Shown here piece after piece: positions 10,177 through 53,550 of a stretch of 64,000 nucleotides of DNA. Within the stretch, counting starts at the first letter, position 1. Every line of letters starts with the position of its first letter. A program made the translations under genes and the position numbers. Where the stretch lies: NCBI RefSeq assembly GCF_054482525.1, contig NZ_CM137006.1; one strand, 5' to 3'. Under the pieces are notes generated by a model. That model was not told the DNA's origin, made no database searches, and saw only the letters and a program-made list of their open reading frames with translations.

Positions 10177-11292
10177 TTAGAACTGGTAGACGATACCAAC
10201 TGCAAACTGGTCATCAGCTGCTGCGCCAGTAATGGCGGCGTCATCTTTATCCAGCATGTTGAATTTGTATGCAGTATAAACGTTCATGTTCTTATTGAAG
10301 TAGTACCAGGTACCAACTTCAATGTAGTTCACACGGTCAGCGTCAACATATCTATGTCCAGGTACACCTTTGATATCTTTACCTTTAGAATACACATAAC
10401 CTAAGGACGGACGCAGACCAAAGTCGAATTGATACTGAACAACCGCTTCAAAGTTCTGGGTTTCATTGATAAGTTGATCACGCATTATTGTATTGCCTTC
10501 TCGATCGGCAACACCTGTATCAATAGAACTCGGAGTCATATTACGAGTTTCACCGTACATTACAGCTGCGTAGACATTGTTCGCGTCATACTTTGCAGCC
10601 AATGACCACAGTTCAGCATTTGAACCGTTTCCATCGGCAACTTGATCGTTGGTGCGATCAGATTTGCTATATGCACCAACGATACCAAAACCATTGATGT
10701 TATAGTCTACAGACAACGCATAGCCGTCACCATTTTGTTTCTTAGTGCTACGGTTGCTGTTTTTGCCTTGGTACTGAATCGCAAAATCAAGACCATCAAC
10801 CAGACCAAAGAAATCAGAGTTACGGTAGGTTGCAACACCGTTGGTACGACCGTTCATGAAGTTGTCAGCGGACGCCCAGGAATCACCACCCCATTCAACT
10901 AACATATCGGTATAAGCTGCGGCATCATAAGCAACACCGTAGTTACGACCATAGTCGAAAGATCCTAACTCGTTATATTTCAAACCTGCGAAGGTTAAAC
11001 GGGTTTTTTCCTGATTAGAGCCTTCGGGCTTGCTGGCGTCGAGGTTGTATTCAAACTGACCAAAACCAGTCAGTTCGCTGGTGATTTGGGTTTCACCTTT
11101 AACACCGAAACGAGCATAGGAGGTATCTTCGTTTTCGCTGTTATTATCATCAGTATTTGACCAGATGCGTTCGCCAACCATCTTGCCGTAGAAATCAACT
11201 TTATTGCCATCTTTATTATAAATTTCAGCCGCATTTGCTGCGCCAGCAACTAATAACGCCGGGACCAGCATTGCCAGAACTTTTCTTTTCAT
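10177..11292 (-). CDS. yedS: Outer-membrane general porin of the OmpC/OmpF family (YedS), apparently intact
   Basis: Signal peptide [21 protein letters not shown], porin-like beta-barrel sequence, C-terminal ...VGIVYQF; start chosen at the ATG with an AAGGGA Shine-Dalgarno (ORF track begins at 11322). Confidence 0.85.
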
Positions 11293-11602: not shown

Positions 11603-11700
11603 TAAAAAAAGCCGGCATCATGCCGGCCCAAAAAATATAAACAAGACGATAAAAGGCTAATAACGGAAGCATCATGACACAGAATAATAAAAAGGGATAA
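11603..11700 (-). ncRNA. rseX: Candidate small RNA upstream of yedS (position expected for RseX); 5' end not determined
   Basis: Minus-strand terminator (hairpin GCCGGCATGATGCCGGC plus T-run, plus 11604-11627) in the yedR-yedS intergenic region; RseX is known from this position in K-12. Confidence 0.3.
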
Positions 11701-11857: not shown

Positions 11858-12223
11858 GTGGAAAAATGTGACTTTTATCACATAATAGTACTAAGTCTGA
11901 ATTTTCCGGGTTATCTCAAAATGGAATACGGTTCGACAAAGATGGAAGAGAGACTCTCTCGCAGCCCTGGTGGCAAATTGGCTTTGTGGGCTTTCTATAC
12001 ATGGTGTGGCTATTTTGTCTGGGCAATGGCGCGTTACATCTGGGTGATGAGCCGGATCCCCGATGCCCCCGTGTCGGGATTTGAAAGCGATTTAGGCTCT
12101 ACCGCGGGAAAGTGGTTAGGGGCACTGGTCGGCTTTTTATTTATGGCTCTGGTCGGGGCATTGTTAGGCAGCATTGCCTGGTACACCCGACCTCGTCCCG
12201 CACGCAGCAGACGCTATGAATAA
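11858..12223 (+). CDS. yedR: Inner-membrane protein YedR
   Basis: Small ORF with two transmembrane segments; start uncertain (GTG 11858 gives 121 aa; ORF track begins at TTG 11840). Confidence 0.75.
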   Translation: MEKCDFYHIIVLSLNFPGYLKMEYGSTKMEERLSRSPGGKLALWAFYTWCGYFVWAMARYIWVMSRIPDAPVSGFESDLGSTAGKWLGALVGFLFMALVGALLGSIAWYTRPRPARSRRYE

Positions 12224-12262: not shown

Positions 12263-12958
12263 ATGGACTTACAACACTGGCAGACACAGTTCGAAAACTG
12301 GTTGAAAAACCATCATCAGCACCAGGACGCGGCCCATGACGTGTGTCATTTTCGCCGCGTCTGGGCTACGGCACAGAAGCTGGCGGCAGATGACGATGTC
12401 GATATGCTGGTGATTTTAACCGCCTGTTATTTTCACGATATTGTGAGCCTGGCGAAAAATCATCCACAACGGCAGCATTCTTCAATCCTGGCGGCAGAAG
12501 AGACGCGTCGCCTGCTCCGTGAAGAGTTCGTGCAATTTCCGGCGGAGAAAATCGAGGCCGTTTGTCATGCCATTGCCGCTCACAGTTTCAGCGCGCAAAT
12601 CGCCCCCTTAACAACGGAAGCTAAAATCGTCCAGGATGCGGATCGGCTGGAAGCCCTGGGGGCGATTGGCCTGGCGCGCGTGTTTGCTGTTTCAGGGGCA
12701 TTGGGCGTGGCGCTGTTTGATGGTGAAGATCCGTTCGCACAGCATCGCCCGCTTGATGATAAACGCTACGCGCTGGATCATTTCCAGACTAAGTTGCTGA
12801 AGCTACCGCAAACCATGCAAACCGCAAGAGGCAAGCAGCTGGCGCAGCACAACGCGCAATTTTTAGTCGAGTTTATGGCGAAGCTCAGTGCCGAACTGGC
12901 GGGGGAGAATGAAGGTGTCGATCACAAGGTGATAGATGCGTTTTCACCCGCGGGCTGA
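12263..12958 (+). CDS. yedJ: HD-domain phosphohydrolase YedJ
   Basis: HD motif (CYFHDI) in the translation; start at the internal ATG giving 231 aa. Confidence 0.9.
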
Positions 12959-13024
12959 GCGCGTGGCCCTAAATGGCTGTAATTATGTTAACCTGTCGGC
13001 CATCTCAGATGGCCGGTTAAATCT

Positions 13025-14443
13025 ATGCAGGAAAATATATCAGTAACCGATTCATACAGCACCGGGAATGCCGCACAGGCAATGCTGGAGAAACTGCTGC
13101 AAATTTATGATGTTAAAACGCTGGTGGCGCAGCTTAATGGTGTGGGTGAGAATCACTGGAGCGCGGCAATTTTAAAACGTGCGCTGGCGAATGACTCGGC
13201 ATGGCACCGTTTAAGTGAGAAAGAGTTCGCCCATCTGCAAACGTTGTTACCCAAACCACCGGCACATCATCCGCATTATGCGTTTCGCTTTATCGATCTA
13301 TTTGCCGGTATTGGCGGCATCCGTCGCGGTTTTGAATCGATTGGCGGACAGTGCGTGTTTACCAGCGAATGGAACAAACATGCGGTACGCACTTATAAAG
13401 CCAACCATTATTGCGACCCGGCGACGCATCATTTTAATGAAGATATCCGCGACATCACCCTCAGCCATAAAGACGGCGTGAGTGATGAGACGGCGGCGGA
13501 ACATATTCGTCAACACATTCCTGAACACGATGTATTACTGGCCGGTTTCCCATGTCAGCCATTTTCGCTGGCTGGCGTATCGAAAAAGAACTCGCTCGGG
13601 CGGGCGCACGGTTTTGCCTGCGATACCCAGGGCACGCTGTTCTTTGATGTGGTGCGCATTATCGACGCGCGTCGTCCGGCGATGTTTGTGCTCGAAAACG
13701 TCAAAAACCTGAAAAGTCACGATAAAGGAAAAACGTTCCGCATCATCATGCAGACGCTGGACGAACTGGGCTATGACGTGGCTGATGCAGAAGATAACGG
13801 GCCGGACGATCCGAAAATCATCGATGGTAAACATTTCCTGCCGCAGCACCGTGAACGCATCGTGCTGGTGGGTTTTCGTCGCGATCTGAATCTGAAAGCC
13901 GATTTTACCCTGCGTGATATCAGCGAATGTTTTCCTGCGCAGCGAGTGACGCTGGCCCAGCTGCTGGACCCGATGGTCGAGGCGAAATATATCCTGACGC
14001 CGGTGCTGTGGAAGTACCTCTATCGTTATGCGAAAAAACATCAGGCACGCGGTAACGGCTTCGGTTATGGAATGGTTTATCCGAACAATCCGCAAAGCGT
14101 CACGCGTACTCTGTCTGCGCGTTATTACAAAGATGGCGCGGAAATTTTAATCGATCGCGGCTGGGATATGGCCACGGGTGAAAAAGACTTTGACGATCCG
14201 CTGAATCAGCAACATCGTCCACGTCGGTTAACGCCTCGGGAATGCGCGCGCTTAATGGGTTTTGAAGCGCCGGGAGAAGCGAAATTCCGCATTCCGGTTT
14301 CGGACACTCAGGCCTATCGCCAGTTCGGTAACTCGGTGGTCGTGCCGGTCTTTGCCGCGGTGGCAAAACTGCTTGAGCCAAAAATCAAACAGGCGGTGGC
14401 GTTGCGTCAGCAAGAGGCACAACATGGGCGACGTTCACGATAA
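13025..14443 (+). CDS. dcm: DNA-cytosine C5-methyltransferase Dcm
   Basis: 472-aa ORF with FAGIGG SAM-binding motif and PCQ catalytic motif. Confidence 0.97.
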
Positions 14444-14894
14444 GGCCACCCGCAGCAAAAATATGCGCGCGATTGCTACGCGTGATACGGCGATTGAGAA
14501 GCGCCTCGCCAGTCTGTTAACCGGGCAGGGCCTGGCATTTCGCGTTCAGGACGCGGATCTCCCCGGACGCCCGGATTTTGTCGTTGATGAATATCGCTGC
14601 GTGATATTTACCCACGGCTGCTTCTGGCATCATCATCACTGCTATCTGTTTAAAATGCCTGCGACTCGAACCGAGTTCTGGCTGGAGAAGATAGGTAAAA
14701 ATGTTGAGCGGGATCGCCGTGATATCAGTCGCTTGCAGGAGCTTGGCTGGCGTGTACTGATTGTCTGGGAGTGTGCGTTACGTGGGCGCGAGAAGCTGAC
14801 GGATGAAGCGCTTACCGAGCGTCTGGAAGAGTGGATCTGCGGCGAAGGTGCCAGCGCGCAGATCGACACGCAGGGGATTCATTTACTCGCTTGA
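14424..14894 (+). CDS. vsr: Very-short-patch repair endonuclease Vsr
   Basis: 156-aa product ([21 protein letters not shown]...); ATG at 14424 overlaps the last 20 nt of dcm in another frame. Confidence 0.95.
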
Positions 14895-15803
14895 TGCATC
14901 CTGAATAACTGGCGCAACTACGGGTTTTGCCGGGAAGAGATATTTTCCCAACGTGACCAGTACCACCGCGAAGACAATCACGCCGAGCGCCAGCCATTCA
15001 ATCTTCGACAGCGTCTCTCCGCCCAGTCCCGTACCCAGCAAGACCGCGACCACAGGGTTAACGTAGGCGTAGCTGGTGGCGAGAGCCGGACTGACGTTGC
15101 GGATTAAATACATATAAGCGTTAATGGCGATAATCGAACCAAACAGCGCCAGATAGCCGACCGCAAGGAAGCCTGAAAGGGAAGGGAGCGCCGTCAGTTT
15201 TTCACCCGCAATCATCGACGCGATCATTAACACCACGCCTGCCGCCAGCATCTCAATCGCACCCGCCATCATCCCTACAGGTAAGGTAATGCGCGAGCCA
15301 TAAACCGAGCCAAACGCCCAGCTAATCGAGCCGATTAAAATCAGAATCGCGCCCCACGGATTGCCGCTTAAATTTCCACCGCTATTGAGCATGATGATTC
15401 CGGCAAGCTCAATGGCGATACCCACCCATTCCAGTTTGCGCGTTTTAATGCCAAACAGGCGGCTGAAGCACAGGGTAAAAAGGGGCACGGTTGCAACCAC
15501 TACGGCGGCGATGCCGGAAGGAACATTTTGATGTTCGGCAACCGTCACCATGCCATTACCGACAGCCAGCAATAACAGGCCAATCAGCGCGGCATTGAGC
15601 AGCGGACGTAGCGGGGGGAGTTTGTGTCCGCGCAGTAGCAAAAATGCCAGCAATAAAATACCGGCTGCCAGGAATCGAACGCCCGCCATCATTAACGGAG
15701 GCCAGCTTTCCACGCCAATCCGAATGACAAAATAGGTTGAGCCCCAAATGATATACAACGCAAACAACGCGCCAAAAAGCGGTAACAACTGGCGGAAACG
15801 CAT
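14883..15803 (-). CDS. yedA: EamA-family (DMT) transporter YedA
   Basis: 306-aa ten-helix membrane ORF. Confidence 0.92.
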   Translation of the reverse strand: MRFRQLLPLFGALFALYIIWGSTYFVIRIGVESWPPLMMAGVRFLAAGILLLAFLLLRGHKLPPLRPLLNAALIGLLLLAVGNGMVTVAEHQNVPSGIAAVVVATVPLFTLCFSRLFGIKTRKLEWVGIAIELAGIIMLNSGGNLSGNPWGAILILIGSISWAFGSVYGSRITLPVGMMAGAIEMLAAGVVLMIASMIAGEKLTALPSLSGFLAVGYLALFGSIIAINAYMYLIRNVSPALATSYAYVNPVVAVLLGTGLGGETLSKIEWLALGVIVFAVVLVTLGKYLFPAKPVVAPVIQDASSE

Positions 15804-20028: not shown

Positions 20029-20116
20029 AACACATCAGATTTCCTGGTGTAACGAATTTTTTAAGTGCTTCTTGCTTAAGCAAGTTTCATCCCGACCCCC
20101 TCAGGGTCGGGATTTT
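20029..20116 (+). ncRNA. dsrA: DsrA small regulatory RNA
   Basis: Sequence AACACATCAGATTTCCTGGTGTAACGAATTTTTTAAGTGCTTCTTGCTTAAGCAAGTTTCATCCCGACCCCCTCAGGGTCGGGATTT including its terminator hairpin and U-run. Confidence 0.9.
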
Positions 20117-53420: not shown

Positions 53421-53496
<76 letters not shown>

Positions 53497-53550
53497 GTTT
53501 AAAAGACATCGGCGTCAAGCGGATGTCTGGCTGAAAGGCCTGAAGAATTT

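Follow-up and report, generated by a model that had tools for sequence, protein, structure and literature searches.

The dcm–vsr junction of Escherichia coli: a known, conserved 20-nt gene overlap consistent with translational coupling

Does a short overlap between two genes tie the translation of the second to that of the first, or may it be a mere trace of a lost stop codon? The question is raised by the dcm–vsr junction of Escherichia coli, considered here in a window of 64,000 nt (the whole stretch of DNA analyzed, from contig NZ_CM137006.1). Dcm methylates CCWGG sites, and Vsr nicks the T:G mismatches left by deamination of 5-methylcytosine. It has been known since the early 1990s that linking the methylase to its cognate repair enzyme keeps C-to-T hot spots at CCWGG in check. 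The junction itself is real, is kept in related gut bacteria, and has been textbook knowledge for the same time.

The dcm coding sequence occupies positions 13025–14443 of the plus strand (ATG to TAA, 472 amino acids) and vsr, a very-short-patch endonuclease gene, positions 14424–14894 of the same strand (ATG to TGA, 156 amino acids), both as uninterrupted open reading frames. According to a scripted ORF check, they have in common the 20 nt at 14424–14443, ATGGGCGACGTTCACGATAA, which comprise codons 467–472 and the stop on the dcm side, and codons 1–6 plus two bases of codon 7 on the vsr side. The vsr frame is +1 relative to dcm ((14424 − 13025) mod 3 = 1), the A of the vsr ATG being the third base of the dcm codon for His467. 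The dcm stop TAA (14441–14443), at a distance of 17 nt from the vsr start, straddles two vsr codons: its T is the last base of codon 6 (GAT), and its AA opens codon 7 (AAG). In E. coli PCN033 and K-12 MG1655, RefSeq has the same two coding sequences, likewise overlapping by 20 nt; script and annotation thus agree with the sequence-only reading, which had reported a 20-nt overlap in different frames and placed the vsr ATG within the last seven dcm codons, here six sense codons and the stop. Other co-directional overlaps annotated within 32 kb about the locus in PCN033, those of fli and hprSR genes, measure 1–8 nt; that of dcm and vsr is the longest locally, yet within the common range below 30 nt. 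A Shine–Dalgarno-like AAGAGG (14412–14417, plus strand) lies 6 nt 5′ of the vsr ATG, within dcm codons Gln463–Glu464–Ala465; the energy predicted for its pairing with the anti-Shine–Dalgarno (anti-SD) sequence is −5.8 kcal/mol, and positions 14414–14415 (G and A) are nearly invariant between species. Sequence alone is no proof of coupling, vsr having its own correctly spaced Shine–Dalgarno site.

Both proteins fall into known families. Dcm matches PF00145 over residues 87–448 (2.6e-77, 260.9 bits, cut-off 22), has a DNA_meth_N domain, and scores 951.6 bits against the subfamily model NF007772 (cut-off 710) and 352 bits against TIGR00675. When the translation is read against the consensus of the C5-methyltransferase catalytic and AdoMet-binding motifs (I, FxGxG; IV, PCQ; VI, ENV; VIII, QxRxR; X, GNSV), all five are seen, namely, FAGIGG, PCQ with the catalytic Cys, ENV, QHRER, and GNSV, respectively, and from the near-identity to K-12 Dcm we infer methylation of the inner C of CCWGG. 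The methyltransferase domain ends at residues 448–450, the last ~22 residues being a tail outside the conserved fold; hence, the overlap falls in the Dcm C-terminal tail beyond this fold. Vsr matches PF03852 from residue 3 (2.7e-39, 133 bits, cut-off 27) and TIGR00632 from residue 1 (181.6 bits, cut-off 97.85), and is identical to K-12 Vsr at 153 of 156 positions (98%). It also has 98% identity (E = 4e-105) to the 155-residue chain of PDB 1CW0, which is aligned to residues 3–156 and itself corresponds to Vsr residues 2–156. Given these start points of the profiles and the structure, ATG 14424 is the real vsr start. In the alignment to K-12 Vsr and 1CW0, the catalytic Asp51 and His69, the zinc ligands Cys66, His71, Cys73, and Cys117, and the intercalating Phe67, Trp68, and Trp86 are all in place. 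The family matches and the 98% identity to K-12 Vsr bear out the earlier remark that this is a known pair and not a new system. The N-terminal arm of Vsr matters for its function: without the first 14 residues, the enzyme is less active and is no longer stimulated by MutL (PMC2715241).

Over the 2.1 kb round the junction, identity is 100% to three chromosomes, that of E. coli PCN033 and those of two further strains, and this segment is found in 5358 of 5426 complete E. coli genomes; the 86-nt junction is present with at most four mismatches in 5316 of the 5426. Two base differences from K-12 are seen in 138 aligned positions, each synonymous in at least one frame: GGC here against GCC gives Gly2 instead of Ala2 in Vsr and is synonymous in dcm (GGG/GGC, Gly468), and ACC/ACT is synonymous in vsr. 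As the junctions are nearly identical, experiments on K-12 apply to the window. The Gly2 codon (GGC, 14427–14429) is itself rare, the 86-nt junction being matched at 99% identity or more in only four of the 5316 genomes.

According to the RefSeq annotation transferred from PCN033, dcm is preceded by drpB (yedR; 11942–12223, plus strand) and yedJ (12263–12958, plus strand), the latter encoding an HD domain, and vsr is followed by the convergent yedA for an EamA transporter (14883–15803, minus strand). In K-12, yedR-yedJ-dcm-vsr form one operon with full-length transcripts observed by SMRT-Cappable-seq (10.1101/262964), and reviews and recent papers call dcm and vsr co-transcribed. An internal sigma70 promoter for vsr was considered as well, and a consensus scan found no sigma70-like match in 12700–15300, including the inside of dcm, which is weak negative evidence; the terminator-like sites found by a scan of the plus strand all lie far from the junction. 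The 3′ ends of vsr and yedA form a 12-nt convergent overlap (14883–14894), at which no terminator-like hairpin was found.

The yedJ–dcm intergenic region (12987–13021) contains a perfect 9-bp palindrome, CGGCCATCT-C-AGATGGCCG, at 12997–13015, nested in an outer inverted repeat GTTAACC/GGTTAA that ends a few bases 5′ of the dcm ATG at 13025. The inner palindrome is confined to Escherichia, and the flanking TTATGTTAACCTGTC...GGCCGGTTAAAT is kept in Citrobacter and Salmonella. For dcm, no obvious Shine–Dalgarno site is seen and the leader is structured; the predicted cost of opening the ribosome-binding site is 15.5 kcal/mol for dcm versus 10.1 for vsr. The palindrome could serve to control dcm, and indirectly vsr, at the level of translation or transcription. 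Elsewhere in the window, Rfam models match the small RNAs rseX and DsrA at 11604–11693 (minus strand) and 20029–20115 (plus strand), respectively, and a three-tRNA cluster at 53421–53720. The genes for tRNA-Ser and tRNA-Asn, placed near the window start by PCN033 coordinates, were not found in the window by Rfam, and thus strict collinearity of the window with PCN033 does not extend beyond the dcm locus. An IS1397 lies near the region in PCN033. The porin gene upstream of rseX and drpB (L001 278–1393, about 10177–11292 of the window, minus strand) is intact in the PCN033 annotation, and its K-12 counterpart, yedS, is a pseudogene.

How widely the overlap is kept was seen by searching a single genome of each species with the Vsr protein, which yielded 80 Enterobacteriaceae loci at 72–95% identity. 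The genes overlap in 59 of the 80, by 14–35 nt. The dcm-frame TAA is at the position equivalent to that of E. coli (+18 to +20, that is, the 20-nt position) in 53 overlap loci; in five, the stop comes one codon earlier, which yields 17 nt, or 14 nt where vsr has a GTG start one codon downstream. This earlier stop arises when vsr codons 5–6 are CAT AAY. In Siccibacter (L040), GAC at vsr codon 6 abolishes the TAA and lengthens the overlap to 35 nt, and a few Raoultella-like loci have shifted start codons and overlaps of 17–23 nt. Counted within the 59 are two loci with deleted dcm. In Escherichia sp. MOD1-EC7003, dcm lacks the codons for amino acids 38–306 through an internal deletion that keeps the frame (L002 1930–2520), and in Klebsiella indica dcm is reduced to a 25-codon remnant ORF (L028 2443–2520). 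In both, vsr is intact, and the TAA within it still ends the upstream remnant ORF.

In a short-gap class, five loci (Cedecea, Dryocola, and two labeled “Enterobacter sp.” among them) have a Dcm that ends in AVKKR and a 10–12-nt spacer with AAGGAG, GGAG, or GGGGG before the vsr ATG. One Buttiauxella of this class has a gap of 35 nt. Five other Buttiauxella loci (L043, L047, L048, L054, and L078) have an opposite-strand ORF of 172 codons between dcm and vsr (about 1535–2203), with a signal-peptide-like N-terminus; there, vsr must have a promoter of its own. Ten loci have no dcm-like sequence 5′ of vsr, with the upstream sequence covered amounting to 80 nt in one of them. A vsr gene without adjacent dcm is seen in genomes of the Kosakonia, Phytobacter, and Pseudescherichia type (L030, L033, L038, L045, L056, L058, and L066, around 1745–2501; also L029 and L031), where it encodes an orphan repair nuclease and has a strong Shine–Dalgarno site; the gene order in the Kosakonia/Phytobacter-type loci inspected is yedJ-vsr-yedA. 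Judging from these sequences, vsr evidently functions in relatives with a gap of 10–35 nt, with an inserted opposite-strand gene, or with no dcm, that is, without the overlap.

In a rough neighbor-joining tree of Vsr, rooted with plasmid homologues, the non-overlap loci with dcm form one clade, that of Cedecea, Dryocola, and Buttiauxella, and the overlap loci the other, with the dcm-less lineages nested in the overlap clade; loss of dcm is hence secondary. The split sits at the root, so that loss and gain of a stop are both compatible with the tree. The distribution of the overlap probably reflects about one event in an ancestor and long retention since then, and therefore the 59 species are not 59 independent observations.

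Constraint inside the overlap was analyzed column by column in the 49 loci that have the standard TAA and in which vsr starts with ATG or GTG at the place equivalent to that in E. coli. The first and second codon positions of vsr are invariant or nearly so, and what varies is the third, which in the dcm frame is a first position. Vsr residues 1–7 come in only eight variants, which differ mostly at position 2 (Ala/Thr) and position 6 (Asp/Asn/Ser), and the last ten Dcm residues in 29. By this comparison the Dcm tail is a free-drifting passenger, its last residues dictated by the constrained Vsr N-terminus. In none of the 59 overlap-class junctions does a dcm-frame stop precede the vsr ATG, although in each species a mean of 2.8 single-base changes in the Dcm tail would create a stop; for a drifting tail, this is suggestive of selection. 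In one sequence, 11 stop-free codons are unremarkable, with a chance probability of (61/64)^11 ≈ 0.59, but the junction recurs in 5316 of 5426 E. coli genomes and an overlap in 59 of 80 species loci.

The Shine–Dalgarno sites of vsr also differ between the classes, the median anti-SD energy being −5.8 kcal/mol for overlap loci, −8.3 for the short-gap loci, and −8.2 for the dcm-less ones; many Citrobacter overlap loci have sites of only about −3 kcal/mol. The sites are weaker in overlap loci than in non-overlap and dcm-less loci (one-sided Mann–Whitney p = 0.0003), a test that ignores kinship and a comparison that amounts to only about three independent phylogenetic contrasts. The weaker sites are in line with coupling that would stand in for Shine–Dalgarno strength.

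We consider it likely, with a probability of roughly 0.65, that dcm and vsr are read from one mRNA and that vsr is fed largely by dcm ribosomes re-initiating at the nearby Shine–Dalgarno site and AUG, with some initiation de novo. The proposed sequence of events would be as follows. The drpB-yedJ-dcm-vsr genes would be transcribed into one mRNA starting upstream, and Vsr would be made as a separate 156-residue protein from ATG 14424, served by a moderate Shine–Dalgarno site in the unconstrained dcm tail. Ribosomes translating dcm would cross the vsr start site and terminate at the TAA 17 nt downstream of the vsr AUG, after which they may be recaptured by the nearby Shine–Dalgarno site and AUG, through short-range re-initiation or ribosome delivery, and a part of vsr initiation would take place de novo. 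Synthesis of the anti-mutagenic nuclease would thereby be tied to that of the mutagenic methylase, with Vsr kept below Dcm. Also in favor of this reading are the overlap retained in 59 of 80 loci with no earlier dcm-frame stop, the weaker Shine–Dalgarno sites of overlap loci, and the two dcm-deleted lineages in which a short upstream ORF still ends at the TAA.

The K-12 dcm-vsr operon was described by Sohail et al. in 1990, Hennecke et al. in 1991, and Dar and Bhagwat in 1993; the last reportedly found that Vsr is a separate protein of about 18 kDa made from the dcm transcript and that premature termination of dcm lowers Vsr synthesis. The dcm-6 allele of K-12 is a nonsense mutation at codon 45 that abolishes vsr activity as well, according to the statement in PMC4444293 that cites Dar and Bhagwat (1993). 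Two modes of coupling have been described in a review, RNA unfolding and ribosome re-initiation or scanning (PMC12548453). The vsr ribosome-binding site has no conserved or unusually stable structure, which argues against the unfolding mode, and thus we infer that the coupling mode is re-initiation and not RNA unfolding. A search for ribosome-profiling literature naming both dcm and vsr found none. Against coupling, the vsr Shine–Dalgarno site is correctly spaced and the ribosome-binding site is not predicted to be sequestered, so that independent initiation seems feasible as far as the modeled structure goes; the poor coupling of long overlaps in synthetic series and the relatives in which vsr evidently works with a gap, an inserted gene, or no dcm also count against it. 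The statement that the arrangement is consistent with translational coupling stands, in view of the 17-nt distance between stop and start, the single operon in K-12, and the dcm-6 phenotype as given in that citing statement.

It may also be that the overlap is a neutral by-product, namely, a dcm read-through tail that arose through loss of an earlier stop near codon 462 and a change of one base in the spacer, with vsr translated independently from its own Shine–Dalgarno site, and that dcm nonsense mutations lower Vsr solely via transcriptional polarity or mRNA instability. On the first part of this explanation, the Dcm tail lies past the Pfam domain (which ends at residue 448) and is highly variable, the Vsr N-terminus is conserved, and Dcm of the sister clade, with its AVKKR end, stops exactly at the place where E. 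coli Dcm continues as AVALRQ, followed by the 10–12-nt spacer with AAGGAG or GGAG and the ATG. Moreover, vsr has a Shine–Dalgarno site, its ribosome-binding site is predicted to be accessible, and long overlaps are poorly coupled in synthetic constructs, where coupling declines with longer overlap and is absent at −25 nt (PMC12548453). As for the second part, the effect of dcm-6 on vsr could be due to Rho-dependent transcriptional polarity or mRNA decay instead of translational coupling. However, no species of the overlap clade has regained a stop 5′ of the vsr ATG despite several one-step routes, and the Shine–Dalgarno site is very weak in many overlap species, such as Citrobacter, and strong where dcm is gone. 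The reduced Vsr synthesis reportedly seen by Dar and Bhagwat upon premature dcm termination also speaks against the by-product. Taken jointly, its two parts seem to us unlikely to hold.

An opposite effect of the overlap would be occlusion: ribosomes finishing dcm would cover the vsr ribosome-binding site, and Vsr would be scarce and rise as translation slows in the stationary phase. The geometry agrees with that, since a ribosome terminating at 14441–14443 would cover 14412–14426; besides, Vsr overproduction is mutagenic, and VSP repair occurs mainly in the stationary phase, when Vsr is reportedly higher (PMC2715241; PMC12907096). Yet occlusion predicts that Vsr goes up when dcm translation is abolished, which is the opposite of the dcm-6 phenotype in its cited description, and dcm appears to be weakly translated, given its leader, so that occupancy may be low. 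We regard this explanation as highly improbable.

For coupling through RNA unfolding, a candidate hairpin at 14393–14453 (plus strand; arms 14393–14400 and 14445–14453) encloses the vsr ribosome-binding site, the vsr start, and the dcm stop, and would be melted by dcm ribosomes. Its stem is part of the minimum-free-energy fold computed for E. coli, and alignment columns 15 and 64, both synonymous sites, show 19 double changes across species. But the fold is no more stable than those of shuffled sequences (z = −0.62), RNAalifold on the 59 species does not return the stem, paired cells amount to 65.2% versus 64.4% in shuffles, 24 sequences break the covarying pair, and the covariation score (14/500) is marginal and inside the stated false-positive range of the tool. 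The opening cost of 10.1 kcal/mol, in turn, is less than the dcm-internal median of 13.7 and below that of 85% of dcm positions, and it is alike in overlapping and non-overlapping species. A conserved hairpin over the vsr ribosome-binding site was hence rejected by the shuffles, RNAalifold, pair counts, and opening energies, and we give the unfolding mechanism hardly any chance. Finally, a Dcm–Vsr fusion by +1 ribosomal frameshifting near the dcm end, or an N-terminally extended Vsr, has in its favor that the vsr frame is open for 57 codons 5′ of the ATG in E. coli, but is excluded for practical purposes by in-frame stops 1–9 codons 5′ of the ATG in 10 of 57 species (in Salmonella, a TAG directly before it) and by the family models and the 1CW0 chain, which start at ATG 14424, with no conserved shift-prone motif seen.

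Returning to coupling by re-initiation, a bolder version of it would make the −20 junction an evolved valve that sets the Vsr:Dcm ratio by inefficient termination–reinitiation, which we hold to be distinctly doubtful. Were it true, overlaps of 14, 17, 20, 23, and 35 nt and gaps of 10–12 and 35 nt would make up a ready-made natural allelic series, including dcm-less loci with strengthened Shine–Dalgarno sites and the remnant leader ORFs of MOD1-EC7003 and Klebsiella indica. Such a series could be used to test a trade-off between overlap length and Shine–Dalgarno strength in coupling, and the valve could help to explain the growth-phase dependence of Vsr.

On the linkage of dcm and vsr as such the window adds nothing new, and the additions made here are modest and comparative: the overlap marks one clade of Enterobacteriaceae, with a natural length of 14–35 nt; the Dcm tail is a freely drifting read-through set by the Vsr N-terminus; and a stronger vsr Shine–Dalgarno site goes with loss of dcm or of the overlap.

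Among known systems, the closest is the K-12 dcm-vsr operon (b1961/b1960), which has the same genes, the same drpB-yedJ-dcm-vsr order with convergent yedA, and the same 20-nt +1-frame overlap, Shine–Dalgarno site, and dcm stop, and differs only allelically, Vsr of the window having Gly2 for Ala2, Asp45 for Ser, and Met78 for Val. Classical coupled pairs, such as trpE-trpD (−1), the many −4 ATGA pairs, and coat–lysis of phages fr and MS2 (−38/−50), are likewise co-directional genes on one mRNA, with the downstream start near the upstream stop and, according to the literature, with expression that depends on the upstream ORF; however, the −20 of dcm/vsr is longer than the common −1, −4, and −8 classes, and, unlike MS2 coat–lysis, it has no supported inhibitory structure. 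The unrelated M-V-R restriction-modification operons of plasmids resemble dcm-vsr in that a C5-methyltransferase gene is followed by vsr with the stop and start overlapping, by 1 nt in Pseudomonas syringae pB26-2 and by 8 nt in Rhizobium leguminosarum pRltTA1C. In these operons, the overlaps are shorter and a restriction endonuclease gene comes after vsr, whereas E. coli dcm is solitary, with no restriction partner here.
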